Assembly: GCA_051532055.1 (NCBI GenBank)
Contig: JAOPTX010000009.1
Span: 16,262 to 80,261 of the forward strand
DNA: 64,000 bases
From: Fibrobacterales bacterium
Lineage (GTDB): Bacteria; Fibrobacterota; Fibrobacteria; Fibrobacterales; JAOPTW01
Direction: 5' to 3'
Shown here: in pieces, positions 1,680 to 33,267 of the stretch
Layout: each line of letters opens with the position of its first letter
How positions within the stretch are numbered: position 1 is the stretch's first letter
Made by a program: the position numbers and the translations under genes
Notes under the pieces: generated by a model
The model's input: the letters and a program-made list of their open reading frames with translations, nothing else
What the model was told of the DNA's origin: nothing
Database searches by the model: none

Positions 1680-2528
1680 ATGAGGGACGAAACTACTGAA
1701 AAAAATATCTATGAATTTCTGGATTACCGGGAGTTTCTACGCTATGTATACGAATTGCGTAATCAAACATCACAATCATTCACCTATCGCTCCATTGCTC
1801 AAAAGCTTAATATGCATCATAGCTTGGTTGCCAGGATTTTTAGGGGTGAGCGCCATATTTCTGATAAAAGTATTCATGAGTTTGCAAAAGTAATTGGCCT
1901 TAAAAAGTTGAAAAGAGACTATTTCTCCCTACTGGTAACCTATGGTAAATCTGACAAGCCAGAGGTTATTAAAGAGTGTTTTGAAAAAATGATGCATTTA
2001 AAACCGGTTAAAGTGATGGTAGTCCAGGACTCCGAATATCGACTCTTTAAAAACTGGTATTCGCAAGCGATTCATGGAGTGCTCGAGTTTTTTCCATTTT
2101 CTGGAGATTATAGAGCGCTCAGTCAAAAATTAAGCCCCGCAATCACGATTTCTGAAGCCAAGGAAGGGATTGAGGTTCTTAAAAATCTTAATTTTATTGC
2201 AGAGGATGACGATGGGAATTGGCGACCTGTTAATGCTCACCTGACTTCTGGTGATCGGTGGAAATCTGCGGCGATTCATTCGTACCACAAAGAAATTCTT
2301 GCACTTGCTTCAAATTCACTTGATATTCATAGAAAAGATCAGAGAGATTTTTCATCACTTACCATTTCAATGGATTCAGAAGATGTTCCGGTAATTAAAG
2401 AAATTTTGAAAAAGACTCGTGATACTATTGTAAAAACAGTTGGGAGAAAGGATGCAGATAAAAGTGATTCTGTTTTTCAGCTCGCTCTCAATTTTTTCCC
2501 TATGAGCCGTTTGGAGGTGAAAAGATGA
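1680..2528 (+). CDS. TIGR02147 family protein (N-terminal HTH, C-terminal DUF4423), copy 1
   Basis: IYEFLDYREFL start, FTYRSIAQKL...GERHIS HTH-like segment, WYSQAI, RDFSSLT, VFQLALNFFP end. Confidence 0.85.
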   Translation: MRDETTEKNIYEFLDYREFLRYVYELRNQTSQSFTYRSIAQKLNMHHSLVARIFRGERHISDKSIHEFAKVIGLKKLKRDYFSLLVTYGKSDKPEVIKECFEKMMHLKPVKVMVVQDSEYRLFKNWYSQAIHGVLEFFPFSGDYRALSQKLSPAITISEAKEGIEVLKNLNFIAEDDDGNWRPVNAHLTSGDRWKSAAIHSYHKEILALASNSLDIHRKDQRDFSSLTISMDSEDVPVIKEILKKTRDTIVKTVGRKDADKSDSVFQLALNFFPMSRLEVKR

Positions 2529-3847
2529 GAACCTTATTACTCTATTGTTTTATGGTATGTTTTACAATCCTTATTGGGTGTAGCTTGCCCGAGCCTGGTC
2601 CCACTGCTGGAACAACAATCGAAACGACAAATGGCATTGCAGGTGTTGTGACCACTGAAAATTCAACACCTGTTGCTGCAGCGCTTATATCTATGAGGCC
2701 CAAAGGTTATTTACCTTCAACTGTGGGTACCGATAGTATAGTGGTAATGTATGAGGCGTTTTCAGATAGTATTGGATATTTCTTAATTGACTCTATTGCT
2801 GATGGTGAGTATGTTGTTGAAATTATTGCATCTGATTCCTTGGCTACCTTCTTTACCGTTACATTTTTTGGTGAACCAGAGATTGTCGAAGTTGAACCGG
2901 TTGTGTATCCTTTGTCTCAGGTGAGTGGTGGCCTTGCTGATACAACGGCAGCTATGCAAAATGGAGAAGTAAAGGTTGAAGCCTATGGGTTTGATAGGTC
3001 TACAGGTGTTGACTCTGTGGGGCGCTTTGAAATCGACCTCCCTGCCGGCGACCACACGTTACGTGTTGTATATGATTTTATGTCAAGTGAAGGGTACGAC
3101 CTCCCGCCTCTAACAACGGCGCCTGGTAGTGTAGTGATTCTTGATTCTCTAGATAAGACCTCCTTAAGTAGTTCCTCTGTGATACATGAGAATGTGTCGA
3201 GTTCAATAAATCAAGAAGAGGTTGAATCAAGTGAATGGTTTTATGTTGATAGTAATGAGACGACTTCTTCACTTGTGTATCATGCGATTATTGATGATTA
3301 TTTTACTGGTGATGAGAGTCGGGAGCTCACACAAGATGCTTCGCTCTTTAATCCACAGGGAGAAAGTTATACTGTTCTTTTTAGTTTCCAATATTCAGGG
3401 GTTGTGCCTGAGCATCAGTATATATTAACAAAGGGAAATGCTGAAAATCACGATGAGGGCTGGAGTTTTTCTATAGAAGAGAAAAGTCTCTTTTTTAGAG
3501 TAAATAGTTCTAATACAATGGAGAGGAGGGCGGGGGTGTACATGGATGTATCAGGTCTGTCGCTGGATAGCCTCTCGCTCATTGTTGGTGTGGTTGACCG
3601 TCAAACACAAACGATACGATGCTATCTTAATGGGCAAGAATCGTGCTGGTATGTCGGTGGTATTGGTACTGAAACAAATAGTATTTCAGGGTTTGGCTCT
3701 ATCAGCGCGAATGCTCCTCTGGTTGTTGGAGGGGGGTACCAACAGGATAGTGCTTATTTTTCAGGGATGGTATCAGAAATTCAAATTTACAATTATGCAT
3801 TACACCCAGAAGAGATACTCAACATTTCTAAGGAATTAACGAGGTAA
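2525..3847 (+). CDS. Lipoprotein: carboxypeptidase-regulatory-like beta-sandwiches + C-terminal LamG/ConA-like domain
   Basis: Lipobox LIGC; AGTTIETTNGIAG motif; C-terminal YLNG...LVVGG...FSGMVSEIQIYNYAL; ATGA overlap with upstream gene. Confidence 0.75.
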   Translation: MRTLLLYCFMVCFTILIGCSLPEPGPTAGTTIETTNGIAGVVTTENSTPVAAALISMRPKGYLPSTVGTDSIVVMYEAFSDSIGYFLIDSIADGEYVVEIIASDSLATFFTVTFFGEPEIVEVEPVVYPLSQVSGGLADTTAAMQNGEVKVEAYGFDRSTGVDSVGRFEIDLPAGDHTLRVVYDFMSSEGYDLPPLTTAPGSVVILDSLDKTSLSSSSVIHENVSSSINQEEVESSEWFYVDSNETTSSLVYHAIIDDYFTGDESRELTQDASLFNPQGESYTVLFSFQYSGVVPEHQYILTKGNAENHDEGWSFSIEEKSLFFRVNSSNTMERRAGVYMDVSGLSLDSLSLIVGVVDRQTQTIRCYLNGQESCWYVGGIGTETNSISGFGSISANAPLVVGGGYQQDSAYFSGMVSEIQIYNYALHPEEILNISKELTR

Positions 3848-4048
3848 TAGAAGTCCCTTTCTTTTGGATGGCTAATTTTGTGATTTACTAAAAGCCTTTA
3901 AATATTGTTTTTGGGCTAAAGTATGAAATAAAACACTATGAACTCAATGTAAACTTTAGTTAACTTAGTGTTTTAAATACACTATTATATTTCCAAAATA
4001 TAACTTATAAATAGGGTATCGGGGGATACTGAGAATTTGGGGTAGGTT

Positions 4049-4444: not shown

Positions 4445-4657
4445 CGAATATTTAGTTGAGCCGTACATTATTTTGACTCCTTCTCTTGTAAGTTATTTCA
4501 TATTTATACTATCAGTCTCTTTTAATCAGAGTAATTTTAAATCAATGTAACTCTATTGTTTCATAAGCTATATTTGTTGGTGACTGGTGAGTCATTTTTT
4601 GTTTAATATAGTGATAGGTGTCAAAAAAGGGCTTGTAACGCATTATAATGTTATTAT

Positions 4658-5239: not shown

Positions 5240-5299
5240 CGTTACTTTTTAACAGTATATTGCCATTTTTTTATACAATTATTCTGAAAATGTGCAAAA

Positions 5300-5438: not shown

Positions 5439-5469
5439 TTAATTTGTAAAACTAAAATTCCTATTTTTT

Positions 5470-8957: not shown

Positions 8958-9797
8958 ATGGACACACCGAACATTTTTAGCTATCGAAATTATCGAGAGT
9001 ATTTAAAAGAGTATCATGCTTTTCGAAAAAGCATTGATAAAGCTTTTTCTCATCGGTCGTTTGCAAAAAAAGCAGGGTATAGTTCATCGGGTTTTTACTC
9101 CAATGTTGTTCATGGCGTGCACAACCTTACAAAACGCTATATCCCTTTGTTCATAAATGGTCTTGAGCTCCTAGGTGATGATGCGCTTTACTTTGAATTG
9201 ATGGTACATTATACTCACGCTGATTCGCCACAGAGTAAACAGATCTACTTGGAGCAGATGATTGACTTAATGCCAAAGACGGTTAAAATGCTCAAACAGA
9301 ACCAGAGTGCCTTTTATGAAACATGGTATCATGCGGTTGTATTGGCGGCTCTAACCATCATTGATATTGTTGATGAGTACCAAGAACTTGCTCAATTTAT
9401 TAATCCTCCAATTAAAAAATTAGAAGCCAAGCGTTCTCTTCTACTGCTTAAAGAATTAAAGCTTATTGATAAGGATGACCAGGGGTTTTATAAGCCTGTT
9501 GATCAGAAGCTCTTTGGTGGTGAGGAGGTTGGAGTGTTTAAAATTCATCAGTTTCAATCGCAAATGATGACTCGTGCAATGCAGGCACAGGAGATGTTTA
9601 CACCAAAAGAACGGTATATTACTACAAAAACTATTTCTGCTTCGAAAGATGGATTAGAACGAATAAAAAAAATGGCTCACTCTTTCGCACTAGAGGTTGA
9701 TAGAATATCTCATGCTGATGTTAATTCTGATCAGGTGCTTCAGCTTAATGTACAGTGTTTTCCATTGACCCAAAGCCGAGAGGGGTATGATGAATAG
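8958..9797 (+). CDS. TIGR02147 family protein, copy 2
   Basis: IFSYRNYREYL, FSHRSFAKKAGYSS, WYHAVV, VLQLNVQCFPLT. Confidence 0.85.
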   Translation: MDTPNIFSYRNYREYLKEYHAFRKSIDKAFSHRSFAKKAGYSSSGFYSNVVHGVHNLTKRYIPLFINGLELLGDDALYFELMVHYTHADSPQSKQIYLEQMIDLMPKTVKMLKQNQSAFYETWYHAVVLAALTIIDIVDEYQELAQFINPPIKKLEAKRSLLLLKELKLIDKDDQGFYKPVDQKLFGGEEVGVFKIHQFQSQMMTRAMQAQEMFTPKERYITTKTISASKDGLERIKKMAHSFALEVDRISHADVNSDQVLQLNVQCFPLTQSREGYDE

Positions 9798-11205
9798 GTG
9801 TTTATTTAATTTGTTGATTGTATCATTTATCATTTTAATAATTACTGGGTGCTCAAACTCAGACGACTCTTCAACAGGAATAACAATAGATACAGGTAAT
9901 GTTATTACTGCAGAAATAGAGAATGCTGATGGCTCTATTCCTGATTCTGTTCAATTGCGAATAGTGCCCTTGGATAGTCTTAATGATTTTAGTCGGCCTG
10001 TAGGTGATGTGCTTGTAGCTATAACAGGAGAAGCGGATCTCGAGGTGTCTTTGGAGGCGCTTTCAGATAGTGATCGATATTTTGTCGAATTTATTTCCTT
10101 GGGTAGTGCTGCTTCACATAATTCTACAATTGAAGAGGGGGACCCCGATTGGGAGCCCGCTAAAGGCTTATGGATACGAGGGGCGACGAAGAAAGAAATT
10201 TCTATGATATTACAGAGGCCAATCTATTTGACAGAAATGCAAACGTTGCAAGGAGTAGTGGATACTGAAGTAGTTCAATCTCCTAAAAAAGTTAGAATTG
10301 TGCATACAGATATTATAGCGGATGTCGATGAAGATGGATATTATGAGTTTACACAAGTCCCTCGAGGGAGCTATACGTTGCTCTTTTTGGGTAGCTCTGA
10401 TGATGAAGAAAATGATTGGTACTCATTGGATACGGTAGTGAGTGTAGGTCTGAGTGAAGATGTGCTCAGTAGTTCACAAGTGGTACGTGGCCCTAAGAAT
10501 TTGAGTAGTTCTGATGAAATGCCCTCAAGTCGTAGTACTGAGAATGAAGTGAGTCAGAGTTCTTCTTCTTCTAATGGTTCAATGAGTAGTAGTGAATTTA
10601 ATGACCGAGAAAGTATCTCGAGTAGCAGTGTTGGTCTTTCAAGTGAAGAGGTTGCGGTCAGTAGCAGTCAAAGTGATGGTACCGAAAGTGGGTTAGGTAT
10701 AGTTTTATCTTCTTCAGAAATGTACTCATCTGAAAGAGTAGATTATTCATCATCATCATTTGATGGGGAAAGTATTGGAGATGGTGAGTACTCTTCAGCA
10801 GTGGGGCACAGTAGTAGTGAGTCGATTGATTTTACCGATAGTTTAGATCTTTCTCATGTATTGCCACGAGGGACATATATAGGCCCTTGGCGTAATCCTT
10901 ATGGTGAATTTGAACAAGACCCCTATCCAGAGTCACTTTACATAGGTGTTAATACTCAATTTTTATTGCAGCTCGATCAGAATGGTGAGCCTTGGCTTAA
11001 GCTATATGGGAAGTGGAGTCAGATAGGAAATACGATACACGTACTTTATTCTGAATGTCACCACATTATTTCTTCCATTCCTTTGAATGAAGAAATTGTT
11101 AATTGTCCTGACTGGATTAATGATTATAACCGTTTTTTATGGAAAGATGGTAAGCTTTTTTTGGTTAGTGGAATGACACTACAGCAATGGGTGTTTATTG
11201 AATAA
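9787..11205 (+). CDS. Lipoprotein partner of TIGR02147 copy 2 (beta-sandwich, long Ser-rich linker, unknown C-terminal domain)
   Basis: Lipobox ITGC; TGITIDTGNVITA motif; DEDGYYEFTQVPRGSYTL; overlaps upstream stop. Confidence 0.75.
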   Translation: MMNRCLFNLLIVSFIILIITGCSNSDDSSTGITIDTGNVITAEIENADGSIPDSVQLRIVPLDSLNDFSRPVGDVLVAITGEADLEVSLEALSDSDRYFVEFISLGSAASHNSTIEEGDPDWEPAKGLWIRGATKKEISMILQRPIYLTEMQTLQGVVDTEVVQSPKKVRIVHTDIIADVDEDGYYEFTQVPRGSYTLLFLGSSDDEENDWYSLDTVVSVGLSEDVLSSSQVVRGPKNLSSSDEMPSSRSTENEVSQSSSSSNGSMSSSEFNDRESISSSSVGLSSEEVAVSSSQSDGTESGLGIVLSSSEMYSSERVDYSSSSFDGESIGDGEYSSAVGHSSSESIDFTDSLDLSHVLPRGTYIGPWRNPYGEFEQDPYPESLYIGVNTQFLLQLDQNGEPWLKLYGKWSQIGNTIHVLYSECHHIISSIPLNEEIVNCPDWINDYNRFLWKDGKLFLVSGMTLQQWVFIE

Positions 11206-13819: not shown

Positions 13820-15646
13820 TTACTTCAGAGCCTGAATAGATGTAGTTGATTCTGTAGGGAAGTTGTCTGGCTTGGTATAGGTTACAGTGGCGGTCGCAGC
13901 CCACTCAGTCCCTCTTATAAATGACGTTTGAAGTCCGACACAATCCATCACAATACTTGTAGTACTGTTGTCCCCAATATGGCCGTAGTTGCCGTTGTAG
14001 ATGCGTGCTGTTCCATGGGATACTATCCAGTCAAAAGGGGCTAATTGTTTGCTGGTGGTGTCTTGAGCAAGAGAGAGTATTTCCATGTTGAGGAGAGGGC
14101 CCCTGAGATCGCGATCAAGAGTGTCAATGGTGTGAAGCCACGTTGGCGGGAGATCTGCAACAATTGGGTGTGTTGAGTGTGTGATGATTTTAGTCGTGCT
14201 GGTAAGTTGCTCTGAAGGTTGGCTTGTGTTGGTTGGGAGTGTATCAAAAGATAGGTCCTGATTAATACTTATGCCAGGAAATGACCCAATAGGGTTTTTA
14301 CCGAGCCCCATAATTTCTTGCATAACTGTCCATTGGCCGTGAACATTTCTTCCTGACTGAGGTATTACCACACCGCCACCATTGGATAGATAGCTTTCAA
14401 AAGCACTTTGCATAGATTGAGACCAAGGGTTTGTAAGGTTGTTTGTGCTCCAGTTACTCGCAAAATTTAAAATAACAACATCATAAGTATTAAAGGGGAT
14501 TGACCAACTATCCCATATTGATGCAGTTACCCCCGGAATAGGTGAGGTCGCTACGTCAATAGTAAAGCGTTTGGTTGATTCGAGAATGAGTTTGTAGTAA
14601 TCGGTAGTCAGTTCCCAATTGTGATCATTAATGCCGTCTATTATAACTGCTTTTATCAGAAAAGGTATTGAAACCTCAAGTTTGTTTCGCCCATCAGTAA
14701 TCAGAGATGATCGAATGACGGTGTCTCGTGTTGGATTGCTACTCACGGCAGTTAGGGTAAGGGTGTCATGGGGGAGGTTGCTAAAGGTGTATCGTTGTCC
14801 ATTTGAGACTTGTTGTTGTAATCCATTACTCAAGCTAATGGTAATTAATTCTGAATCAGATTGTGGGGCAGATACAATGCCTGTAATTACACTCAGGGAG
14901 TCGGGCGTAGGAATTACCGGAGCTATTGTATCTTCTCCTGAATTCGGCTCGTCTTGTATTGTGTCTGTTGGGTTTAAAGAAAGTGATTGAAAGTACAATG
15001 TGGCTGTAGTAATGCTGTCGGCATACACAGTGATATTTGAGGTGTCTTTAGGGTTGGTACCTATGGTGGGACTTGTCATCCGTATAGTGTATGTACCAAA
15101 GGGCAGATTCATAAAAGTGAAAGTGTTAAAGGCTGTGTCTACAGTGGTAGAATACTGTGTGCCAAGGAGTTGTATTGTTAATGGTACCTTGGGGGAGTCA
15201 ATAAATGAAATCATGCCAAGGAGTGATCCTGTTGGGCGCGTGAGGAGTGACTGTGTTAGAGTGATAGGGCTTTGGTCGGGTTTGTGTAAGGTGTGCTGTA
15301 CCGCGAAGCTATCTGATGTGGTGGCTACAATAAGGAATGAGCCAGTGTCGCTGGTATTAAATGAAAATTCACCTCTATCATTAGTAGTGTCAATTAATGG
15401 GTAGGTGATGCTTGAAGCTACTTTCGCTGCATTTTGCTGAGCGCCATTGTATGGGGTAGGTGATAGTGTGACAACTGCAGATACAGCAAGGGTACTATCT
15501 GGTAGTGTGATGGTTCCGGCGATACTATTGGGTATTTCGGTTCCGCCAGCCCCCCCTGCAAGAGAATCAGAAACTGAGCAGTTTAAAAGAGTGAGTACAC
15601 AGAAGATGGAAATTAAGGAATAGAGAAAAAGTGAATGTTTAAGCAT
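13820..15646 (-). CDS. Lipoprotein partner of TIGR02147 copy 3: beta-sandwich repeats + ThuA-like domain (ORF track start 15661; ATG 15646 preferred)
   Basis: LLNC lipobox; AGGTEIPNSIAG motif; IIDGINDHNW...YDVVILN...GGGVV...GH ThuA-like; GGAGG before ATG 15646. Confidence 0.75.
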   Translation of the reverse strand: MLKHSLFLYSLISIFCVLTLLNCSVSDSLAGGAGGTEIPNSIAGTITLPDSTLAVSAVVTLSPTPYNGAQQNAAKVASSITYPLIDTTNDRGEFSFNTSDTGSFLIVATTSDSFAVQHTLHKPDQSPITLTQSLLTRPTGSLLGMISFIDSPKVPLTIQLLGTQYSTTVDTAFNTFTFMNLPFGTYTIRMTSPTIGTNPKDTSNITVYADSITTATLYFQSLSLNPTDTIQDEPNSGEDTIAPVIPTPDSLSVITGIVSAPQSDSELITISLSNGLQQQVSNGQRYTFSNLPHDTLTLTAVSSNPTRDTVIRSSLITDGRNKLEVSIPFLIKAVIIDGINDHNWELTTDYYKLILESTKRFTIDVATSPIPGVTASIWDSWSIPFNTYDVVILNFASNWSTNNLTNPWSQSMQSAFESYLSNGGGVVIPQSGRNVHGQWTVMQEIMGLGKNPIGSFPGISINQDLSFDTLPTNTSQPSEQLTSTTKIITHSTHPIVADLPPTWLHTIDTLDRDLRGPLLNMEILSLAQDTTSKQLAPFDWIVSHGTARIYNGNYGHIGDNSTTSIVMDCVGLQTSFIRGTEWAATATVTYTKPDNFPTESTTSIQALK

Positions 15647-21924: not shown

Positions 21925-24900
21925 ATGATGCTTCTTGGGATTGATGTTGGGTCAACGACGGTTAAAATTTCACTAGTTGAGGGAACGGTTGAGCGGTTTT
22001 CTTACTATATGCGTCACAATGCTCAACAACGAGAAGCTGTCTGTACTTTGCTTGAGATGGTGCAGGAAAAATATCCTGGTATTACACCTGCTATTTCTTT
22101 TTGTGGGAGTGGGGGACACGGTTTTGCAGAAGAAATTAGGGTGCCGTATACCCAAGAAGTCGTTGCAAATGCAGTGGCTATAAAGGCACGATATCCTCAA
22201 ATTCGCACCGCAATTGAGTTAGGTGGGCAGGATGCTAAGGTGGTATTGTTTGCTGTTGACCCTCAGAGTGGCCAGTTGGTAACTCAAGATATGCGTATGA
22301 ATGGTTCATGTGCAGGAGGCACAGGGGCTTTTATTGATCAAATTGCTGAGCTACTCAGTGTACCTGTCGAAGAGATGAATGGATTGGCAGAGCAAGGAAC
22401 TCAAGTGTATGAAGTCTCTGGGCGTTGTGGGGTTTTTGCAAAAACGGATATTCAACCGCTCCTAAATCAAGGGGTCCCTAAAACAGATATTGCGCTTTCT
22501 GCCTTTCATGCTATTGCGAAGCAGACTATTGGAGGATTAGCTCAGGGAATAGATCTCGCACCTCCGATTATTTTTGAAGGGGGTCCTCTTACCTTTAATG
22601 CTGAATTGAGAAAAGTTTTTTGTGAAAGACTTAAGGTGACTCCTGAGGATGCTTTACTTCCAGAAAATGCTCATTGCATTATTGCGTATGGTGCCGCGCG
22701 CTCACTCGATCATGCTGTAGAGATTGATTCCCATGAAATTACGCCTATTGTGAATACACTTCGTTCAGGGTGTAATAAGAAGGGATCAAATGAAGAAGGG
22801 ATGTCGCCATATTTTGAAAATGAGCGTGAGCGGGAGGAATTTACCGTATTTCATACCAATGAGACCTCTGATTTTGATGAAACTAATTGGAAGGGAAGGG
22901 AATTGCCTGTCTATATTGGGCTCGATGCAGGGTCGACGACATCTAAGGTAGTGGTGCTTTCAAACAAAGGTTCAGTGGTAGATTCGTTCTATGCAAGTAA
23001 TGATGGGGAACCCCTTGAGGTTATTACTCGTGGACTTATGAGTTTAAGAGATCGTTTCCGGAAAAAAGAAATTGGCTTAAAAATACTGGGCCTCGGCACC
23101 ACTGGTTATGGTGAAGAACTTTTTGCCAAGGCCTTTAACGCTGACTTTCATACGGTAGAGACGGTCGCCCATGCGGAGGCTGCTAAAAGTATCTGTCCGG
23201 AGGTCTCATTTATTCTGGATATTGGTGGCCAGGATATGAAGGCGATGTTTCTTAGGAATGGTGTCATTACTAATATTATACTCAATGAAGCATGTTCAGC
23301 AGGGTGCGGTTCTTTTTTAGAAACCTATGCTCAGTCTATGGGGATTGCCGTACAGGATGTTGCGGAAATGGCTTTTGAATCAAGGAGTCCATCGAAGCTT
23401 GGATCACGCTGTACCGTTTTTATGAATAGCTCTGTTATCACAGAACAGAAAAATGGGAAGAGCCCCGAAGATATAATGGCGGGTCTTTGTCGTTCGGTAA
23501 TAGAAAATGTATTTACTAAAGTTGTGCGTATCTCAAACCTAAAAGAGATGGGAGGTCACATAGTAGTACAAGGGGGGACTTTTAAAAATGATGCGGTACT
23601 CAGGGCGTTTGAAGAACATCTAGGGCTTACAGTGATTCGCCCTAAACATCCAGGACTCATGGGGGCTATAGGAGTGGCGCTCTTAGCAAAAAAAGAAATG
23701 GAACGCAGTGGTGCATCTTCAACGTCGATGCGCTTGGATGCACTTGAGCGTTTTACTTATACCAAGCAAGCAGGGCAGGTGTGCCGGCTCTGCTCTAATT
23801 TGTGTAATAGAACAGTAGTTTCGTTTTCGGATAGCGCTCATTTCGTAACGGGTAATAAATGTGAGAAAGGTAAAATTATTGGTGATGCTGCATCGAGTGA
23901 GACTCGCGCACAGGTAGCGGAACTCAATAGTACTATAAAGGCTATTCCAGATCTAGTGCGCTTTCATGGGAGCTGTATTACAGCAGACTATGGCGTAGAG
24001 AAAGTCGCTGATGATAAAAAGGTAACTATTGGTATTCCGCGCGTACTCGACTTTTGGCAGACACTTCCGTTCTGGAAAGCCTTATTTACATCTCTGGGAT
24101 ACACAGTCGTTGTGTCAGATAAAAGTTCTCATGCGCTCTTTGAATCTGGCCTTTCTACCATACCTTCTGACACCATCTGTTATCCGGCAAAACTGGTTCA
24201 TGGACATATTCAAAATTTGGTTGAGAAAAATGTTGACCGTGTTTTTTTACCCATGATGATCAGTAGAAGAAATTTTGAGGAAACAGAAGCGGGGACAGCG
24301 GTATGCCCTGTTGTACAGGGGTATGCCCTTGTAATCGATTCGTGCTCTGAGATTACAGAAAAGCATGGAATCCGCTTTGATTATCCTGTCTTAGATCTAA
24401 AAAACCCTGAGATAATGCAAAAACAGATCGTTAAGTTTTTAGATGCCTTTTATACGATTCCCAAAAAAGAGGCTGTGGCTGCTTTTAAAGTTGCAGAGCA
24501 GTGCCAGTTTAAGTCAATTAAGCGATTACAGGACAAAGGGAGATCAGTAGTGGCTGACCTTAAGGATGATGAGTTTGCGATTGTTCTTGCGGGAAGGCCC
24601 TATCAGTATGATCCTATGGTGAATCACTTTTTGAGTCAACATTTTATTGCCCAAGGTATTCCTGTGGTGACATTGGATGCTATTGATCATACTCAATACT
24701 CTATTGAAAATAGTAGAGTGGAACTTACAAATTCTACACACTCGAAGCTCTTGTCTGCAACATTGGCGGTGGCGAATAACCCTAAATTAGAGCTTTGTCA
24801 GATTGTAAGCTTTGGATGTGGCCACGACGCGATCCTGAGTGATGAGATGAATCGAATTATGAGTGAACACTCGGATAAATCAGTGTTACAGCTCAAACTT

Positions 24901-26262
24901 GATGAAGGAGATGTCAAAGGGCCAGTGTCGATTCGGGTACGTTCCTTTATCGAGACCGTGCGAAAAAAACGCGGAACCAGTATCAGTCAGCCAAGGCGTG
25001 CAGTACTTTCTGATCCGTATCCAGTAAAATTTACTAAAGAGGATGCAAAGAAAAGAAAGGTATTGGTTCCTAATCTTTCTCCATCTTTTTCGCGAGTAGT
25101 TGCTTCGATATTTAAAAATCAAGGAATTGAGATGGAAGCTCTTCCCGTGGCTACTCCAGCGGCAATTGCGTTAGGTAAAAAATATGTAAATAATGATATT
25201 TGTTATCCCGCTCAAATAAATATTGGAGAGATGCTCGAGTATCTCGAAACTAATGATTGTGAGAGTAGTGAGATCGCTTTGGGATTGGCTAAGAACTGTG
25301 ATAACTGCCGTGCGGGGCAGTATGCTGCACTTGCGCGTCAGGCACTCGACGATGCGGGGTATAGTGATATCCCTATTATGACAACCGGTGATGATAAAAA
25401 AAATATGCACCCGGGATTTAAAAGTAATATGGCAATTCAGATTCGTATGGTCTGGGGTATCGCGCTTATTGATTGCCTTGAAATAATGGTGCGACGTATG
25501 AGGCCGTATGAAATACATAAGGGAGAAGTTGATCGCGTATATACAGAGCAGCTTGCATTGGTGTGTGCTGGTTTTGAGGTCTCAATAGATGAGGCGCTAA
25601 AGCGATTTAAAGTATGTGTCACTGCCTTTAATGAGATCGGAGTAGATGCTACAAAACGAAAACCTCAAGTGGGACTGCTTGGTGAAATTTTCGTTAAATA
25701 TCATCCAGCTGCCAATGCTTTTATTGAACGGTATTTAGAGTCTCATGGTATGGAAGTTATTCAACCGCCAATGCTTGATTTCTTTAGACGAGATGATATC
25801 ATTCGAAAGTATAAACGGAAAAATGGTATGATGCAGCGGCCGTTTATGGCGCTCCTTGTAGGGACGGTGTCTGAAGCAGTGTATGCTAAGGCAACTAAAA
25901 AAATCAATAACATATTTAAGTCATTTAAATTGTATGAGCATCATGCTGATGTGTATGAACTTCATGAGCACGTAAATGGTTTTATTGATACCGCTTTTAA
26001 AGTGGGCGAAGGTTGGCTTATTGCGGGTGAACTTTTTGATCTTGCAAAGCGGGGAGTAAATAGCTTTGTTATAGTGCAGCCATTCGGGTGTATGCCAAAC
26101 CATGTGAGTGGTAGAGGTATGACAAAGGTATTTAAGAAGGAGTTTCCTCATATACAAGTGTTGAGTCTTGATTATGATCCTGATACGAGTATGGCAAATG
26201 TTGAAAATCGATTACAGATGTTGGTTATGCGGGCTCGTGAGCAGCAAACTGAAGTAGGCTGA
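21925..26262 (+). CDS. plsA: Fused acyl-CoA dehydratase activase/reductase, PlsA+PlsR-like plasmalogen/ether-lipid synthase
   Basis: Two BcrAD/BadFG ATPase domains (GIDVGSTT...CAGGTG...CGVF; GLDAGSTT...CSAGCG...RCTVF), CxxCxxxC linker, DUF2229-like (GIPRVL, DTICYP, SFGCGHDA), C-terminal NDICYP/CRAGQY/PFGCMPNH. Confidence 0.75.
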   Translation: MMLLGIDVGSTTVKISLVEGTVERFSYYMRHNAQQREAVCTLLEMVQEKYPGITPAISFCGSGGHGFAEEIRVPYTQEVVANAVAIKARYPQIRTAIELGGQDAKVVLFAVDPQSGQLVTQDMRMNGSCAGGTGAFIDQIAELLSVPVEEMNGLAEQGTQVYEVSGRCGVFAKTDIQPLLNQGVPKTDIALSAFHAIAKQTIGGLAQGIDLAPPIIFEGGPLTFNAELRKVFCERLKVTPEDALLPENAHCIIAYGAARSLDHAVEIDSHEITPIVNTLRSGCNKKGSNEEGMSPYFENEREREEFTVFHTNETSDFDETNWKGRELPVYIGLDAGSTTSKVVVLSNKGSVVDSFYASNDGEPLEVITRGLMSLRDRFRKKEIGLKILGLGTTGYGEELFAKAFNADFHTVETVAHAEAAKSICPEVSFILDIGGQDMKAMFLRNGVITNIILNEACSAGCGSFLETYAQSMGIAVQDVAEMAFESRSPSKLGSRCTVFMNSSVITEQKNGKSPEDIMAGLCRSVIENVFTKVVRISNLKEMGGHIVVQGGTFKNDAVLRAFEEHLGLTVIRPKHPGLMGAIGVALLAKKEMERSGASSTSMRLDALERFTYTKQAGQVCRLCSNLCNRTVVSFSDSAHFVTGNKCEKGKIIGDAASSETRAQVAELNSTIKAIPDLVRFHGSCITADYGVEKVADDKKVTIGIPRVLDFWQTLPFWKALFTSLGYTVVVSDKSSHALFESGLSTIPSDTICYPAKLVHGHIQNLVEKNVDRVFLPMMISRRNFEETEAGTAVCPVVQGYALVIDSCSEITEKHGIRFDYPVLDLKNPEIMQKQIVKFLDAFYTIPKKEAVAAFKVAEQCQFKSIKRLQDKGRSVVADLKDDEFAIVLAGRPYQYDPMVNHFLSQHFIAQGIPVVTLDAIDHTQYSIENSRVELTNSTHSKLLSATLAVANNPKLELCQIVSFGCGHDAILSDEMNRIMSEHSDKSVLQLKLDEGDVKGPVSIRVRSFIETVRKKRGTSISQPRRAVLSDPYPVKFTKEDAKKRKVLVPNLSPSFSRVVASIFKNQGIEMEALPVATPAAIALGKKYVNNDICYPAQINIGEMLEYLETNDCESSEIALGLAKNCDNCRAGQYAALARQALDDAGYSDIPIMTTGDDKKNMHPGFKSNMAIQIRMVWGIALIDCLEIMVRRMRPYEIHKGEVDRVYTEQLALVCAGFEVSIDEALKRFKVCVTAFNEIGVDATKRKPQVGLLGEIFVKYHPAANAFIERYLESHGMEVIQPPMLDFFRRDDIIRKYKRKNGMMQRPFMALLVGTVSEAVYAKATKKINNIFKSFKLYEHHADVYELHEHVNGFIDTAFKVGEGWLIAGELFDLAKRGVNSFVIVQPFGCMPNHVSGRGMTKVFKKEFPHIQVLSLDYDPDTSMANVENRLQMLVMRAREQQTEVG

Positions 26263-27192: not shown

Positions 27193-27223
27193 TTGTGCTT
27201 ATTAATAGGGTATTTGTGCTTAT
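27193..27223. promoter_or_regulatory. Direct repeat TTGTGCTTAT x2, 21-bp period, candidate operator
   Basis: Copies at 27193-27202 and 27214-27223 in the divergent promoter region. Confidence 0.5.
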
Positions 27224-27277: not shown

Positions 27278-28120
27278 ATGGATTATGTGAATATATTTGA
27301 TTATACCGATTATCGGCTTTTTCTAAAAGAGTATCATACGCTTCGAAAAGAGAGTGACTCTCGGTTTTCCCATCGTTTTTTTGCTCAAAAGGCCGGATAT
27401 TCATCAACAGGGTATTACTCTAATGTGGTGAAGGGTGTTTTGAATCTCACAAAAAAATATATACCCAAGTTTATCCATGCTCTTGGTCTTGAAGGTAAAG
27501 AGGCTGACTATTTTAAATTGATGATTCAGTATAGTCATGAAATGATTCCTGCAGAACGCCAGATTGTCTATGAACAGATGATTGCATTAATGCCTCCAAA
27601 GGCTCAGCGTATGAAATTGTCTCAAAAAAGTTTTTATCAATGTTGGTATACAAGTGCGGTACTTATTGCTCTTGATATCCTTGACTTTGAAGATGATTAT
27701 AAAGAGTTGAGCGATTTCATTAATCCTCCTATAAAAGTGATAGAGGCCAAAAAGTGTGTTGCGCTTCTTAAAGAACTTGGCTTGATTGTACAAGATGGAA
27801 ATGGGTTTTGGAAACAAACCAATGCTAAAATTGTAGGTGGTGAAGAGGTGGGGGTACATACAATCCATCAATATCAATCTCAATTTATGGAGATGGCGTC
27901 AGAAGCACAGGCACGATACGCCCCGAAAGATAGGTTTATATCTACGAAAACTATTTCCACGTCCAAAAGAGGACTTGAGCGTATTAAACAGTCAGTTCGA
28001 GAACTGTATGTTAATATTGACTCTATTGTGTTAGCTGAATCAGAAGCGAGCCAAGTCTATCAATGTAATATTCAATTTTTTCCGATTACAAAGGATAAAC
28101 ATGATGAAAGTTATTCTTAA
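27278..28120 (+). CDS. TIGR02147 family protein, copy 4 (close paralogue of copy 2)
   Basis: IFDYTDYRLFL, FSHRFFAQKAGYSSTG, GGEEVGV, YQCNIQFFPIT. Confidence 0.85.
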   Translation: MDYVNIFDYTDYRLFLKEYHTLRKESDSRFSHRFFAQKAGYSSTGYYSNVVKGVLNLTKKYIPKFIHALGLEGKEADYFKLMIQYSHEMIPAERQIVYEQMIALMPPKAQRMKLSQKSFYQCWYTSAVLIALDILDFEDDYKELSDFINPPIKVIEAKKCVALLKELGLIVQDGNGFWKQTNAKIVGGEEVGVHTIHQYQSQFMEMASEAQARYAPKDRFISTKTISTSKRGLERIKQSVRELYVNIDSIVLAESEASQVYQCNIQFFPITKDKHDESYS

Positions 28121-29264
28121 TTATTGTGTCGTATGTGTAGCGCTGTTTTTTGGGGCATGTTCTCTTTCAGAGGAGGGGATACAAGATCAGTCCGGGACGA
28201 CTCTTGAAACTGATAATGTCATTATGGCGAAGGTTGCCTATCATGATGGGGTACCCGCAGGTAATGCTTCGGTAGAGCTGACAGAATGGATTGATAATGG
28301 AATATTTATACCTGATAGTATTACGACCATAAAAACATCAAGTTTTAGTGCGAATAGTGACGGTGAGTTCTCTCTTGATTCTTTAGAACCGGGTGTAGAA
28401 TATTTTATTGAGTTAATAAGTGATGACGATAGTCGCCCGGAGAGAGAGTGGCTACAGAAAATATCAGTTGATGCGCTGAAGAAGCGGGGTGTTGTACAGC
28501 TTAAGAAAGAGCGCATCATGCGTTTTAATCTAGATAAGGCGGGTGATGATCAAGCATGGTTTGGGATTCAAGGAACGTCTAAATTTTATCCACTTGGATC
28601 GGGGGTTACTCATGTACAGGCCCCGAGCTCTGATTATTCGTTTGTTGTTGTATCGAACCCTACGGTTTTGGATGGTGACACTCGCTACACTATTACAGAA
28701 GATGACAATTATACCAAAGTTGATGAGTACCATTATGAAAGTTCTAGTCATAGTGAAAGTTCCGAAGAAGAATGGTCATCTGAAGAGTCGGAAGAGGAAT
28801 CAAGTGAAGGCGAAGAATTGGGAACTGATAGTTCAAGTGATACATCAGAAGATGTGGGTGGATTATATAGCGATAATGAGTATGAAGACTCATCTTCTGA
28901 TAATGATCAACTCATGAATGATGATGTGTATGTTGAGTGTGTCTTTGGTGGAAGCGAGTATGAGTGTAGCGCTGATGTTTCTCCTACTAAAATAGAATGT
29001 GAATCCCTTGGTGATGATTTTGATTGTGAGAAATTATTTGAAGATCTGTCTCATTACCGTGATGTTTGGAAAAAAAATACTTGGGAGAATAGTAGCGATT
29101 TTGATGGAATGGTTCTCTGTTTTACTGCAGGAGATCCTGTTGCATGTGATACCGCTGCTATTGATCACGTGCTCTGTTTTGATTCAGAATCCTATTATAT
29201 CGAATGTGATAACTTTGAAGATGAAAGTATTGTTATTCTTCTCGGGATACATCAAAAATACTGA
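28101..29264 (+). CDS. Lipoprotein partner of copy 4 with acidic linker and C-terminal Cys-pair repeats
   Basis: FGAC lipobox; SGTTLETDNVIMA motif; four C-x7/8-C units. Confidence 0.75.
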   Translation: MMKVILNYCVVCVALFFGACSLSEEGIQDQSGTTLETDNVIMAKVAYHDGVPAGNASVELTEWIDNGIFIPDSITTIKTSSFSANSDGEFSLDSLEPGVEYFIELISDDDSRPEREWLQKISVDALKKRGVVQLKKERIMRFNLDKAGDDQAWFGIQGTSKFYPLGSGVTHVQAPSSDYSFVVVSNPTVLDGDTRYTITEDDNYTKVDEYHYESSSHSESSEEEWSSEESEEESSEGEELGTDSSSDTSEDVGGLYSDNEYEDSSSDNDQLMNDDVYVECVFGGSEYECSADVSPTKIECESLGDDFDCEKLFEDLSHYRDVWKKNTWENSSDFDGMVLCFTAGDPVACDTAAIDHVLCFDSESYYIECDNFEDESIVILLGIHQKY

Positions 29265-29559: not shown

Positions 29560-30978
29560 ATGAAACAACAACTTTTAATATCAGCATTTATTGGGTTTGG
29601 CCTTATAGGATGTGCTCAAGAAGATGCGGTCGAGAGCACCCTAGTGCCTGCAAGTCAGAATACAGAAGCAGTTATCACCGGGACAGTGGCGTATGGATAT
29701 GCAGCGTCTGATGTGGAAGTAGAAATTGTAGATCAGGACGGTGAAGAAGTTTTTTCGGGAACAACCGATGAGGAAGGAGAATTCAGTGCGCACATCCGAA
29801 ACAAACACCCCAAATTACCCCTCCTTCTTTGTGCTCATATTGATGATTCTACAGAGTTTACCTCTATAATTAGTGATGATGACGGTGAACTTGGTGAAGG
29901 TGAAGAAATTCATACTCATGTCAATGCAATAACTGACCGAGCAACACGTGAGCTTCTTGGTGAAGGCGTTGATCATACAAAACTTCGTGGATTAAAAATG
30001 GCTCAAATTATTGCTAAGGGTGAGGAAGTTGTTGATAAAGTACTTGGTGAAGATATTGGTTTTGAATCGTTCTATAATAAGAAAGAGTTCAAGGCGGCGA
30101 TTAAGGGGCGTGAAGATGTTGTGCCAGGTGTACATGATATGATGCTTCACTCTCTTGATGATATGGCTAAAAAAGATGGAAAACCAGTAAAAGAACTGGT
30201 AAAAGAGTTTAAAGAAAATCGGAAAGAACTTTTTGAAAAGAGCGAAGAGTTTAAAAGTGAGCTTGCTGATAATCTTGCTGAGTTTAAAGTAGAGACTGAA
30301 GCGTTGAGAGCTGAGGTGAAAGATTTTGCAAGTAACCACCCTGAAATTGTACAGAATATTAAAGAACGTCACGAACTTATGCGTGGTGATGTTGAACGTC
30401 CAGAACTTGATAGTACAGAACTTGCCGCACGAAAAGCACTGATTGAAGCGTTGGCAGAAAATTGTCAAGAGATGACCCACGAAGAGCGTGTGGCTTATAT
30501 GGATAGTGTCAGTGCAGAGTTCAGAAATTTGATGGCGTTAGAGCTGGAAGTATTAAAAGACGCTCTCTCGGATTCGGTGACTCGGGAAGATCGACACGTT
30601 GTTGATTCGACAATGCGTGCTTATGCGCGAGAACTTATTGAAACACTTCAACCATGTCCTGAGTTTGTCAAAAATGTTAAAGAGCGAATAGAAGAAAGAC
30701 ACGATGGTGAACGTCCTGAAGAAGAGAATCATGAGGGTGACCGTCCCGAGATTGAACGCCCTGAAGGAGAAAAGGCAGAAGGTACTCATCCAGAGGTCGA
30801 GCGCCCAAGTGTCGAGGAACCAGAAGGTGATAGGCTAACGAAAGAAGAAATGGAAGAGATGTTCAAAAACTGTAAGCCAGAATTAAATAATACAGATTGG
30901 GTGAAACCTGAAGAATGTCCTGAATTTCCTGGAAAACCAGAGGTGCTTCCTGTTCTTGATTTGGAAGAGGTCGAATAA
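29560..30978 (+). CDS. Lipoprotein, paralogue of 31897-33267, with ERPE repeats
   Basis: LIGC lipobox; ITGTVAYGYA...GTTDEEG; helical middle region; GAGG SD. Confidence 0.75.
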   Translation: MKQQLLISAFIGFGLIGCAQEDAVESTLVPASQNTEAVITGTVAYGYAASDVEVEIVDQDGEEVFSGTTDEEGEFSAHIRNKHPKLPLLLCAHIDDSTEFTSIISDDDGELGEGEEIHTHVNAITDRATRELLGEGVDHTKLRGLKMAQIIAKGEEVVDKVLGEDIGFESFYNKKEFKAAIKGREDVVPGVHDMMLHSLDDMAKKDGKPVKELVKEFKENRKELFEKSEEFKSELADNLAEFKVETEALRAEVKDFASNHPEIVQNIKERHELMRGDVERPELDSTELAARKALIEALAENCQEMTHEERVAYMDSVSAEFRNLMALELEVLKDALSDSVTREDRHVVDSTMRAYARELIETLQPCPEFVKNVKERIEERHDGERPEEENHEGDRPEIERPEGEKAEGTHPEVERPSVEEPEGDRLTKEEMEEMFKNCKPELNNTDWVKPEECPEFPGKPEVLPVLDLEEVE

Positions 30979-31029
30979 TATAATATATGGCTGCACGGAT
31001 TGTGCAGCTCATTTTAAAGTGAGTAATGT

Positions 31030-31896
31030 ATGAGTGATAGTGTGAACATTTTTCAATATACTGATTATCGCCTCTTTTTAAAGGATGCGATACAGGCGCG
31101 TAAAAGCATTGATAAAAAGTTTTCTCAACGGTTTATTCATCAAAAACTTGGTATTAAGTCAACAGGGTGGTTGGCTGATATACTTGGAGGGAGGAAAAAA
31201 ATATCTCGTTCCAATTTAATTACTCTTGCTGGGCTTCTTAGTGTTGGCCCCCGTGAGGAACTGTATCTTCAAACACTCGTTGATTATAATCATTCCAAGA
31301 CTGTTGAAGATAAAAATAGAAATTATGCTAAGCTCCTAACCTTTCAAGAAGTTCCCAAAGATATTATAGGCAAGGATCGGTTTGAGTATTTCTCAAAGTG
31401 GCACTATGCTGCCATTCGAGAATATCTTTTTATTGAACCATTTAATGGCAATTACACTACCCTTGCAAAAGCAATTATTCCTGAAATTACAGTGAACGAA
31501 GCAAAAATGGCAATTGTCCTTCTTGAGGACCTTGGGATGATAAAGCGATATGCTGGTGGCATTTTTAAACCTGCTGTGGAGCATGTTAAAAAGCAAGGTG
31601 ATTCTTTTGCTCCCGTCTATTACTACAACTATCTGAAAGCACAGATGGAGCTCGGTATTGGGTCTATGGAGCGGATCCCAAAAGAGGAACGTGATATTTC
31701 GGCTATTTCGGCGACCCTCAGCGAAGAGGCTTTTAAAGAGATTGCTGAAGATATAAAAGTCATTCGAAAAAAAATAGTTCGCCTTTCAGAAGAAGAAAAT
31801 GGTAAATTTTGGAACTCGGTGGATGGTGACTCTAGAAGAGTGTACCAAGGTGTATTTGAACTATTTCCGGTCTCTAAAGTGAAAGGGGGGCGTTAG
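31030..31896 (+). CDS. TIGR02147 family protein, copy 5
   Basis: IFQYTDYRLFL, LGIKSTGWLADILGGRKKIS, WHYAAIRE, RDISAIS, YQGVFELFPVS. Confidence 0.85.
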   Translation: MSDSVNIFQYTDYRLFLKDAIQARKSIDKKFSQRFIHQKLGIKSTGWLADILGGRKKISRSNLITLAGLLSVGPREELYLQTLVDYNHSKTVEDKNRNYAKLLTFQEVPKDIIGKDRFEYFSKWHYAAIREYLFIEPFNGNYTTLAKAIIPEITVNEAKMAIVLLEDLGMIKRYAGGIFKPAVEHVKKQGDSFAPVYYYNYLKAQMELGIGSMERIPKEERDISAISATLSEEAFKEIAEDIKVIRKKIVRLSEEENGKFWNSVDGDSRRVYQGVFELFPVSKVKGGR

Positions 31897-33267
31897 ATGT
31901 ATTTGCTATTATTATGTATGCTATGCTTAGTTGTTGGATGTACTCGTTCAGAAACTATAGCGAGTACCGAAGTGGAAAATGAAATTGCGGTTAAGATTTC
32001 GGGAAGTGCTGCCACAGGCTATGCTATTGAAGATGCTGACTGGATAATTCAGAGTGAATCGGGTGATACGCTCGCAACAGGAACAACTGATAGTATTGGC
32101 TCGATTATCCACGCCTTTGAAGAGGGGGAAGTGAGAGAAGATGCGCGCTTAATTATTACAGTGGATAATGGAGAGAAGTACAGAGGAATCTCATTTGAAG
32201 AGGGGACTCACCGGTATCCAGTTATATCACCGCTTTCTGAATATTTTACTGAGTCATTTGTGAAAATATCTCAATCGGGGTCTGCATTTATTGTTCCCAA
32301 AATTGATTCATTACACAAGTTAGAGAAAGAGATGCATGTAATGCTGTATGGAGTGGATAGTGGGATGGTTTTGAGAGATAGTACTTTCAAGCCTGCTCGA
32401 AAAGGAATGAGAGAAGGCGAGCCCTCAGAATTGGATCTGTTCATTCACTCGGTAACAGAGATAAGTAATGGGACGTCGGGTGGACGAGATTCACTTTTTG
32501 AAGTACATAGATATGATGATGGTAAAGGGCCACTCGTTCAAAATAGAGATATGCAACGTCAGTATGCTCAAACAGTATCACTTTTTGAAATACCTGATGA
32601 TAAAAAAGAGCTCTACTTTAAATCTTTTGATTACGGTGATCAGAAAAGCAACGTTGGTCAATTTGGCGCTGTTATGGATATGGTTAGAACAAGCAAGTTC
32701 CTTGAAAAATATAACGGCCATCCTGTGAGGCGTGAGGTAGAAGCGGTTTATTTAGAGACTGTTAATAGTACCGTTTCTGTTATTGATAACAATCGAGAAA
32801 TGGTAGCTGATGGAGAGTATTGGTTGCATCTTGGGCATATTGTAAACGTAGCTATGCAGCCGATACACAAAGACCTTGAGTTAATTGTTGTTGAAGAGTT
32901 GTCTGCTATACAATGGAATGCTATAGAGTTATATGGACGGTTACTTGGCATACAGGTTGGTAGAATGATAGAGGCGTTAACCTTTGCTCCTCTTAAAGCC
33001 AATCCTGATAGCGTTGACTTTCTGGTACATACCCTGGTTGTTGATCTCGTTCTCAATTCTTTTGATATCCATGAATATCTTGCTTCTGATTTTCAGAAGT
33101 ATCGTGATGATCATGTGAATAAACCGAGCGATTTCGATATAAAAGAAGCTCTTGAAAGAATTAAAAATGATGAACGCCTTGGGCCTGGATCTGGACCTGG
33201 GCCTGGACCTAGTCCAAATGGTGGCACTCCACAAAATGGTGCTATGCACGAGATGGCTCCAGAGTAA
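31897..33267 (+). CDS. Lipoprotein partner of copy 5
   Basis: VVGC lipobox; ASTEVENEIAV motif; ATG abuts upstream TAG; GP repeats near the C-terminus. Confidence 0.75.
   Translation: MYLLLLCMLCLVVGCTRSETIASTEVENEIAVKISGSAATGYAIEDADWIIQSESGDTLATGTTDSIGSIIHAFEEGEVREDARLIITVDNGEKYRGISFEEGTHRYPVISPLSEYFTESFVKISQSGSAFIVPKIDSLHKLEKEMHVMLYGVDSGMVLRDSTFKPARKGMREGEPSELDLFIHSVTEISNGTSGGRDSLFEVHRYDDGKGPLVQNRDMQRQYAQTVSLFEIPDDKKELYFKSFDYGDQKSNVGQFGAVMDMVRTSKFLEKYNGHPVRREVEAVYLETVNSTVSVIDNNREMVADGEYWLHLGHIVNVAMQPIHKDLELIVVEELSAIQWNAIELYGRLLGIQVGRMIEALTFAPLKANPDSVDFLVHTLVVDLVLNSFDIHEYLASDFQKYRDDHVNKPSDFDIKEALERIKNDERLGPGSGPGPGPSPNGGTPQNGAMHEMAPE

Follow-up and report, generated by a model that had tools for sequence, protein, structure and literature searches.

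Tagged lipoprotein genes paired with TIGR02147/DUF4423 regulators in a Fibrobacterales genome: a candidate self-regulated envelope cassette

We examined a stretch of 64,000 nucleotides (nt) from the draft genome of a Fibrobacterales bacterium (5.17 Mb, 181 contigs). Within this stretch (contig JAOPTX010000009.1, here C9, C9:16262-80261; hereafter the window), five genes encoding regulators of the TIGR02147/DUF4423 family are each followed on the same strand by a gene for a predicted lipoprotein. Near the mature N-terminus, the lipoproteins share a short conserved peptide, which we call the tag. The regulators (R1 to R5), their partner lipoproteins (P1 to P5), and the tags, all of which were read from the translations, lie at the following window positions.

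1680-2528, + strand: R1, regulator of 282 amino acids (aa); TIGR02147 227.9 bits, DUF4423 107.4 bits, HTH_3 22.2 bits (cut-off 23)
2525-3847, + strand: P1, partner lipoprotein of 440 aa; 4-nt overlap with R1; lipobox Cys19; Laminin_G_3 50.2 bits; CarboxypepD_reg 36 bits
2609-2644, + strand: P1 tag GTTIETTNGIAG, residues 29-40, also placed by an alignment of 41 partners
8958-9797, + strand: R2, regulator of 279 aa; TIGR02147 251.8 bits, DUF4423 85.7 bits
9787-11205, + strand: P2, partner lipoprotein of 472 aa; 11-nt overlap with R2 (8 nt if counted from the second ATG); linker rich in Ser; no Pfam family
9877-9912, + strand: P2 tag GITIDTGNVITA, residues 31-42, also placed by the partner alignment
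15639-16472, - strand: R3, regulator of 277 aa; TIGR02147 270.7 bits; AlphaFold2 model obtained
13820-15661, - strand: P3, partner lipoprotein of 613 aa from a TTG start; ThuA 33.3 bits (cut-off 33.4, narrowly missed)
15646, - strand: alternative ATG start of P3, with which the R3 overlap would be 8 nt instead of 23
15515-15547, - strand: P3 tag GGTEIPNSIAG
27278-28120, + strand: R4, regulator of 280 aa; TIGR02147 261.1 bits
28101-29264, + strand: P4, partner lipoprotein of 387 aa; overlaps R4 by 20 nt; acidic/Ser linker; C-terminus rich in Cys; no Pfam family
28194-28229, + strand: P4 tag GTTLETDNVIMA, residues 32-43, also placed by the partner alignment
31030-31896, + strand: R5, regulator of 288 aa; TIGR02147 206.9 bits; 51 nt behind the preceding lipoprotein gene, with a hairpin (30990-31008) between
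31897-33267, + strand: P5, partner lipoprotein of 456 aa; abuts R5; no Pfam family
31960-31989, + strand: P5 tag ASTEVENEIA, residues 22-31, also placed by the partner alignment

All five regulators are full-length family members, with scores of 206.9-270.7 bits against NCBIfam TIGR02147 (cut-off 50; model positions 2-272 aligned) and 71.4-107.4 bits against Pfam DUF4423 (PF14394; cut-off 30). Relative to the end of the regulator stop codon, the partner starts of P1 to P5 fall at -4, -11 (or -8), -23 (or -8), -20, and 0. The five partners are predicted lipoproteins: each passes a lipobox caller (PROSITE PS51257-type rule) with a hydrophobic signal peptide that ends in a lipobox Cys and reaches a maximum hydrophobicity of 1.8-2.4 at residues 3-7. 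Their tag strings begin 7 to 12 residues after the lipid Cys. No NCBIfam model matched any of the five, and CarboxypepD_reg was found in the window in P1 alone, at a domain later than the one adjacent to the tag. A first-pass annotation made from the sequence had described a five-fold module of TIGR02147/DUF4423 regulators, each overlapped or abutted by a lipoprotein gene carrying a common motif. The family assignments, the gene arrangement (starts from -23 to 0), and all five quoted motif strings hold; the count of five is right for the window and understates the genome, as described below. Of its labels for the C-terminal cargo, those open to a check hold, with Laminin_G_3 recovered in P1 and ThuA narrowly under its cut-off in P3; P2, P4, and P5 have no Pfam family. 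Between the fourth and fifth regulator-partner cassettes lies a further lipoprotein gene (29560-30978, + strand), whose product has an N-terminal domain resembling that of P5 and a weak bMG3 match under cut-off; it carries no tag and has no regulator of its own.

Regulator and partner genes form fixed pairs throughout the genome, as the first-pass annotation had proposed in calling them cognate. There are 52 TIGR02147 matches, 50 of them over the cut-off, and 41 of these 50 regulators have a same-strand lipoprotein gene in the +1 position that starts between -80 and +15 of the regulator stop. The partner start overlaps the 3' end of the regulator gene in 30 of the 41 pairs, 15 of them in the 4-nt ATGA/GTGA arrangement. 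A purine tract resembling a Shine-Dalgarno (SD) sequence precedes the chosen partner start in 35 of the 41, a figure to be read in light of a loose SD rule that also favored such tracts when the start was picked. The nine regulators without a +1 lipoprotein comprise six true solos, one cut by a contig end, one partial gene, and one that precedes a 77-aa membrane-anchored protein. In this last protein (C49:54530-54766, - strand), whose gene comes immediately behind its TIGR02147 neighbor, a membrane anchor that lacks a lipobox precedes the tag-like sequence SGGSITGNEITAE, which implies that the tag can follow a transmembrane as well as a lipid anchor. The cassettes have evidently been duplicated as units. 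Short metatranscriptome contigs, from a library that likely derives from the source sample and of a kind that can hold DNA, fall inside P4, R5, and P5; none bridging a regulator-partner junction was found.

The alignment of 41 mature N-termini gives the consensus C-S-x-S-[DE]-...-[AS]-G-x-[ST]-T-[ED]-h-x-N-x-[IV]-A-G, in which T-E/D-x-x-N forms the core of a tag 7 to 12 residues long. To place the tag among the lipoproteins of the genome, 527 were called by a single rule (33 partners and 494 others), which misses about one-fifth of the true partners and presumably a similar share of the other lipoproteins. A cross-validated hidden Markov model (HMM) of the motif, built from one half of the partners and applied to the remaining half, reached the 5-bit threshold in 24/33 partners versus 7/494 other lipoproteins (Fisher 4.5e-28). 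The seven non-partner matches are genuine tag-bearing paralogues without a TIGR02147 gene upstream. In all, about 48 of the roughly 530 predicted lipoproteins in the genome carry the tag. These HMM counts are more reliable than simple regular expressions, which miss many true tags, such as TIETTN. The tag is thus specific to +1 genes and is not common in unlinked lipoproteins, in line with the enrichment that the first-pass annotation had suggested checking. Its remark that the motif was absent from the other window lipoproteins also stands, with 0/11 by our own caller in place of the approximately 14 it had counted. A loose-pattern match in one of these 11, SSSQN, is spurious and lies within a Ser-rich linker.

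Conservation by codon position bears on the level at which the tag is maintained. Where the alignment has its conserved T, I, and A, codon positions one and two vary little and position three holds just 0.05-0.26 bits; because this third position is nearly free, the tag is under selection at the protein level. The same pattern tells against reading the tag as a nucleic-acid element, that is, an operator or RNA structure in the 5' end of the partner gene. A fixed position near the start of the second gene would suit such an element, but the conservation of first and second rather than third codon positions does not, nor does the encoding of the same peptide both on contigs of 47-73% guanine plus cytosine (G+C), introduced below, and in the present window at 38-43% G+C. 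We consider this explanation scarcely credible. Two other candidates were set aside. An arrest peptide of the SecM/VemP/MifM type was dismissed by reasoning: only 6-16 residues separate the tag from the signal peptide, and translational arrest is unlikely because the signal peptide would still be inside the ribosome during synthesis of the tag. The conserved tag positions do not match sequons for N- or O-glycosylation.

The tag often stands directly before a stalk-like domain, so that its relationship to the adjoining fold requires care. Among further paralogous partners, CarboxypepD_reg (PF13620) matched 20/34 at E <= 0.001, 9 of them over the cut-off of 32.3 bits, and most of these matches start at profile position 1-2, exactly on the I-A-G of the tag. 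In an AlphaFold2 model of the P3 N-terminus (predicted local distance difference test, pLDDT, 80.4), a beta-sandwich begins at residue 19 with SIAGTIT as strand 1; the core GGTEIPN is modeled as coil, with mean pLDDT of 45 for residues 1-10 and 66 for residues 11-20. The core therefore lies outside the sandwich, and merely the last residues, I-A-G, fall in strand 1. The tag is also kept where no sandwich follows, before a Ser-rich linker or other sequence, in five partners (L017, L026, L028, L032, and L034). One of these, L028 (C36:50127-52781), has two consecutive copies of the core (GVTECGNT GVTECGNT), in which Cys occupies the position that is usually hydrophobic; a Ser-rich linker comes next. 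The first-pass annotation had allowed that the motif might be just the first strand of the fold; a coil core that persists without the sandwich speaks otherwise. With low confidence, the model suggests that the tag may be a membrane-proximal linear peptide.

These observations also weigh on a broader null explanation, in which the tag has no function of its own and either caps the beta-sandwich or forms its first strand, or else travels passively with the 5' gene end in cassette duplication. The location of I-A-G in the first strand of a CarboxypepD_reg-like domain and the evident duplication of cassettes as units are what such an account would predict. Against it, the core persists in the five partners that lack the sandwich and before unrelated domains in a second phylum, synonymous sites vary freely, and L028 has doubled the tag in tandem. 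Moreover, the tag is better conserved than the sandwich: in 27 paralogous pairs assembled for a covariation analysis, pairwise identity averages 37% in the tag, compared with 29% in the regulator and 19% in the sandwich. We judge a functionless tag to be improbable.

The association extends well beyond this genome. TIGR02147 occurs in 55/61 sampled Fibrobacterota genomes (source genome included), at 2 to at least 34 copies each. For the other Fibrobacterota, we took the best locus from each of 30 genomes plus one near-identical locus from a metagenome-assembled genome. An overlapping or abutting +1 lipoprotein is present at 31/31 of these loci, many of which are orthologues in two genera and so do not amount to 31 independent cases. 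A T/S-[EDQ]-x-x-N core, typically AGTATDTENTIAG, appears in 25 of the 31, and the remaining 6 have a variant with S for N. In one Fibrobacterota clade (L043-L047), the tag reads AGGTEAESTIA, Ser replacing the near-invariant Asn. A profile of tag plus sandwich (start at or before model position 9, E < 0.01) found no match in five Fibrobacterota genomes that lack TIGR02147, where the matches obtained are internal domains of large proteins; five Fibrobacterota genomes with TIGR02147 (27 copies in all) gave 21 matches.

Homologues named Myxococcota, Myxococcales, Sandaracinaceae, and Polyangiaceae are among the relatives of the regulator, and a search of 1.84 billion representatives with the regulator profile retrieved 16,122 clusters at 50% identity (E <= 1e-10). 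Metagenome contigs scanned with six Myxococcota-type relatives yielded 80 loci, 67 of which contain the whole regulator gene together with 300 nt or more of downstream sequence. In these 67 Myxococcota-like loci (47-73% G+C), a lipobox-like Cys and a loose core within 28 residues were found in 64/67 +1 open reading frames and a tight core in 52/67, most often as TETGN (26 times) or TDTGN (12 times). The same loose and tight patterns occur in 25/494 and 5/494 of the non-partner lipoproteins of the present genome, a comparison in which the metagenome count is the more permissive, having taken all candidate starts. The Myxococcota-like tag is usually G-T-E-T-G-N-P right behind the Cys, and the sequence after it is unrelated to the Fibrobacterota stalk.

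We next turn to the regulator itself. None of the five window regulators has a hydrophobic or membrane segment, the maximum 19-residue Kyte-Doolittle mean being 1.26. In an AlphaFold2 model of R3 (pLDDT 87.2), a six-helix N-terminal domain (residues 9-101) is followed by a winged helix (helices 138-143 and 151-164; wing 167-177 with strands 167-169 and 175-177), two long helices (189-210 and 227-250), and an extended C-terminal tail. A Foldseek search of the whole R3 chain against the PDB returned no match at E <= 0.001. Searched separately, residues 6-90 resemble XRE, HigA, DdrO, and P22 c2 types (3pxp, Z 9.0; HigA, 8.5; DdrO, 8.0), and residues 106-188 resemble ArsR, HxlR, PadR, and MarR types (Z 8.3-9.0 against 2p4w (9.0), 2oqg, 6j05, and 1r1u (ArsR-type, 8.7)); structural matches to the R3 domains are almost exclusively transcription regulators. 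These matches consistently suggest that the regulator combines an XRE-like helix-turn-helix with an ArsR/HxlR-like winged helix. Some relatives of the regulator carry precomputed PF13560 or PF01381 annotations; for the winged helix, no Pfam match was found in the five window regulators. A comparison of 151 regulators combined three sets: the present genome (40), other Fibrobacterota (31), and Myxococcota-like loci (80). Sixteen positions are conserved in every set, and R216 is invariant. The tail (N261, F265, and P266) is the most conserved segment, above either presumed recognition helix.

The trans-envelope signaling first proposed for the module is not borne out: the regulators lack a membrane segment and the cassette encodes no membrane transducer, nor was a membrane signal transducer attached to a cassette found among the proteins scanned between the window cassettes. 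Likenesses to extracytoplasmic function (ECF) sigma/anti-sigma pairs and to peptide receptors persist as analogies only, since the Pfam scan of the five regulators revealed no sigma-70 or TPR family, the proteins have no membrane segment beyond the partner signal peptide, and structure searches gave no clear peptide-receptor fold. A related explanation invokes RRNPP-type peptide signaling, in which the tag would be cut out in the envelope, re-imported, and bound by the XRE-type regulator, its conserved residues serving processing and its variable ones specificity. The XRE-like N-terminal domain and the mixture of conserved and variable tag positions are compatible with such a route. As a precedent, enterococcal pheromones derive from lipoprotein precursors and bind PrgX-type regulators. 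No TPR-like peptide-binding domain is evident in the regulator, however, with PrgX (2aw6_B) appearing only at Foldseek rank 40 (probability 0.21); the cassettes contain no protease or importer, the tag resides in the mature part rather than the signal peptide, and no sign of cleavage was obtained. We regard peptide signaling of this type as very improbable.

Regions upstream of the regulators are enriched in repeated words that may serve as operators. An exact direct repeat of at least 10 nt is present in 11/48 regulator upstream regions versus 69/1465 control upstream regions (Fisher 2e-5), and one of at least 9 nt in 18/48 versus 204/1465. Inverted repeats of at least 10 nt are not enriched (6/48 regulator upstream regions versus 123/1465 controls), and scans for sigma-70 promoters and terminators gave sites no more numerous than in shuffles. 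The candidate words are as follows.

1228-1235 and 1239-1246: two palindromic words TGTCGACA, 11 nt apart, in the divergent R1 intergenic region
1585-1592: a third copy of TGTCGACA, some 90 nt ahead of the R1 start
1671-1678: one-base variant TGTCGATA, beside the R1 start codon
27193-27202 and 27214-27223, + strand: two direct copies of TTGTGCTTAT, spaced by 21 nt and lying 64-85 nt upstream of R4
C30:41494-41533, C30:43631-43670, C31:57996-58035, C39:16700-16739, and C42:53193-53232 (outside the window): pairs of CGTAGCCTA
contig 30: CGTAGCCTAA pair, 31 nt apart, a candidate operator word for the contig-30 regulator

The TGTCGACA trio before R1 is the sole cluster (within 400 nt) among 42 genome copies, and the R4 repeat is likewise the sole cluster among 18 genome copies of its 9-mer. 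The closest R1 paralogue, 59% identical and with an almost identical first helix-turn-helix, has GATGTCA[AC]C three times upstream at similar distances, and a tagged orphan of R1's subfamily has GATGTCACC upstream. The word CGTAGCCTA(A) has 11 genome copies, 10 of which form five direct-repeat pairs, all with 31-nt spacing and oriented toward the downstream gene. One pair fronts a TIGR02147 cassette, at its own promoter, and another sits just behind it, before a LuxR-type gene; judged from sequence, the five pairs look like a small regulon. Separately, the divergent region between R1 and a PAS-GGDEF gene contains a 16-nt perfect inverted repeat (window 1489-1563, arms at about 1488-1504 and about 1546-1563, some 40 nt apart), situated between the TGTCGACA words.

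Considered together, we favor, at a probability of roughly 45%, a self-regulated, translationally coupled cassette for a variable envelope lipoprotein, with a tag that a single factor common to all cassettes would read, most probably in the envelope. In this proposal, the cytoplasmic regulator would bind paralogue-specific repeated words before its own operon and so set the level of its own cassette; DNA binding and autoregulation we infer from the domain types and the repeats. The partner would comprise a signal peptide with lipobox, a short linker, the tag (of the form [AG]-G-x-T-[ED]-h-x-N-x-[IV]-A-G in the present genome and G-T-E-T-G-N-P in Myxococcota-like loci), usually a CarboxypepD_reg-type stalk, and a freely exchanged cargo of probable binding type, including LamG, LRR, ThuA, FISUMP, and others. 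Tag sequences differ little between cassettes, which is easier to reconcile with one common reader than with fifty cognate-specific dockings. Such a reader would serve the sorting, tethering, or processing of the tagged lipoprotein class.

The first-pass annotation had also raised the idea of the motif as a docking peptide for the regulator, and its sole topologically possible form is a secretion-coupled partner switch. Here the regulator would hold the tag of an unexported prolipoprotein, its own or that of any family member, and Sec export would free it. Cassette transcription would then follow export state and report envelope capacity to each promoter, amounting to FlgM-type feedback through the housekeeping Sec/lipoprotein route, and translational coupling would aid the encounter. 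Much of the evidence above is compatible with this switch: regulator and partner genes overlap, and the tag is a short, fold-independent linear peptide right behind the signal peptide that stays linked to TIGR02147 in two phyla while the rest of the partner changes. Genomes without the regulator lack tagged lipoproteins. A conserved tag would also be expected to meet a conserved site, for which the invariant R216 and the conserved tail are available. Among the 27 paralogous pairs, identity in the tag correlates with identity in the regulator (r 0.29, permutation p <= 5e-4) and not with that in the sandwich (r 0.04). The co-evolution anticipated at first pass is therefore present as covariation, but co-inheritance of adjacent DNA accounts for it among paralogues equally well. 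Also counting against the switch are the tagged lipoproteins that lack a regulator (about 7), the regulators without a partner (at least 5), and the cross-talk that a generic tag would cause among fifty cassettes; Sec substrates are, in addition, normally exported fast, leaving little precursor available. Complex prediction of R3 with residues 1-45 of mature P3 gave scores of 0.06 and 0.19 (mark 0.32), which, having been obtained without controls, we use in neither direction. On balance, we think a partner switch unlikely, although it is the foremost of the rival explanations.

Several points weigh against the self-regulated cassette with a shared tag reader. On the DNA side, the repeated words were picked after looking, a long exact repeat occurs at only about a quarter of regulator loci, no convincing upstream repeat was found at R2, R3, or R5, and the nearest gene downstream of one CGTAGCCTA site encodes a LuxR-type regulator that could be the binder instead. 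On the protein side, structural Z scores of 8-9 fall in a range that the search tool rates as common, and Pfam HTH_3 matches R1 alone among the five regulators, at 22.2 bits, under its cut-off of 23. With respect to the tag, an ordinary envelope sorting signal should also mark lipoproteins unrelated to TIGR02147, yet only about 7 orphans carry it, all of them paralogues, and no candidate envelope reader was identified. The strict linkage in two phyla, together with the conservation of R216 and the tail outside the recognition helices, fits a direct link between regulator and tag at least as well.

TIGR02147/DUF4423 is a large family of unassigned function, with up to about 50 copies per genome, and the pairing, the defined tag, and the candidate operator words make it directly testable. 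Given the binding-type cargo of Fibrobacterota (LamG, LRR, and FISUMP), the cassettes may govern the surface-binding proteins displayed by a fiber-degrading cell. Should it prove true that the regulator reads the tag, this would link gene expression with protein export in a new way, and would do so in at least two phyla.

The genes between the window cassettes are mixed and include those for a PAS-GGDEF protein, a REC-GerE response regulator, a glycosidase of family GH3, two lipoproteins (one with LamG, one CotH-like), and a BadF/BcrA-type activase fusion, among others. The fusion (21925-26262, + strand; 1445 aa) comprises two BadF/BadG/BcrA/BcrD ATPase modules and DUF2229, of the CoA-enzyme activase type. 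Two lipoproteins of the window are paralogous, one at 16948-18531 (+ strand; CotH, 110 bits) and one at 43262-44716 (- strand), the likeness of the latter resting on translation. G+C content is 38-43% across the window, and GC skew is strongly positive over the first 56 kb (0.11-0.24 per 4-kb block), with genes on both strands.

The regulator plus tagged-lipoprotein module is not described in the full-text literature on TIGR02147, DUF4423, or PF14394 that we searched, a coverage that excludes subscription journals. The portions searched of the literature on sister Fibrobacter families and on Fibrobacter lipoprotein regulation, including PMC6851124, contain nothing on it, and a passage of a Bdellovibrio study simply lists the DUF4423 protein Bd3700 as up-regulated. 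The five window regulators are full-length members of TIGR02147 ("Fsuc_second")/DUF4423, a family whose description omits both function and the pairing with tagged lipoproteins.

Several known systems bear comparison with the cassette. Like XRE/Cro-CI-type local regulators (phage repressors, HigA, and DdrO), it has locus-specific repeated words upstream, and its N-terminal regulator domain can be superposed on these proteins at Z 8-9, a range rated as common; unlike them, the cassette regulator adds an ArsR/HxlR-type winged helix and a conserved tail, and its repeats are mostly direct rather than inverted. A type II toxin-antitoxin system of HigA-like type was ruled out, the partners being exported lipoproteins of 387-613 aa. 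Control of polysaccharide utilization loci in Bacteroidota similarly involves many paralogous loci with their own regulator (ECF sigma/anti-sigma or SusR beside SusC/SusD) next to a surface lipoprotein with sugar-binding-type domains, but the cassette has no sigma-70 domain, anti-sigma factor, TonB-dependent transporter, or membrane component. Lipoprotein sorting signals (Lol avoidance, the Bacteroidota export signal, and the Borrelia tether) resemble the tag in being short, fold-independent, and a few residues after the lipidated Cys; they serve whole lipoprotein classes, whereas the tag is confined to lipoproteins behind one regulator family. In FlgM/sigma-28 and ExsE-ExsC-ExsD-ExsA, a cytoplasmic transcription factor is likewise encoded along with a protein that is exported. 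Those systems use flagellar or type III export and their binding is demonstrated, whereas the cassette route would be Sec and Lol, with hypothetical binding; secretion-coupled logic of this kind would explain why a cytoplasmic protein co-evolves with a linear N-terminal peptide. Overall, the cassette is a family-level variant of a local regulator encoded with its target gene, and its cross-phylum tag could prove to be something new.

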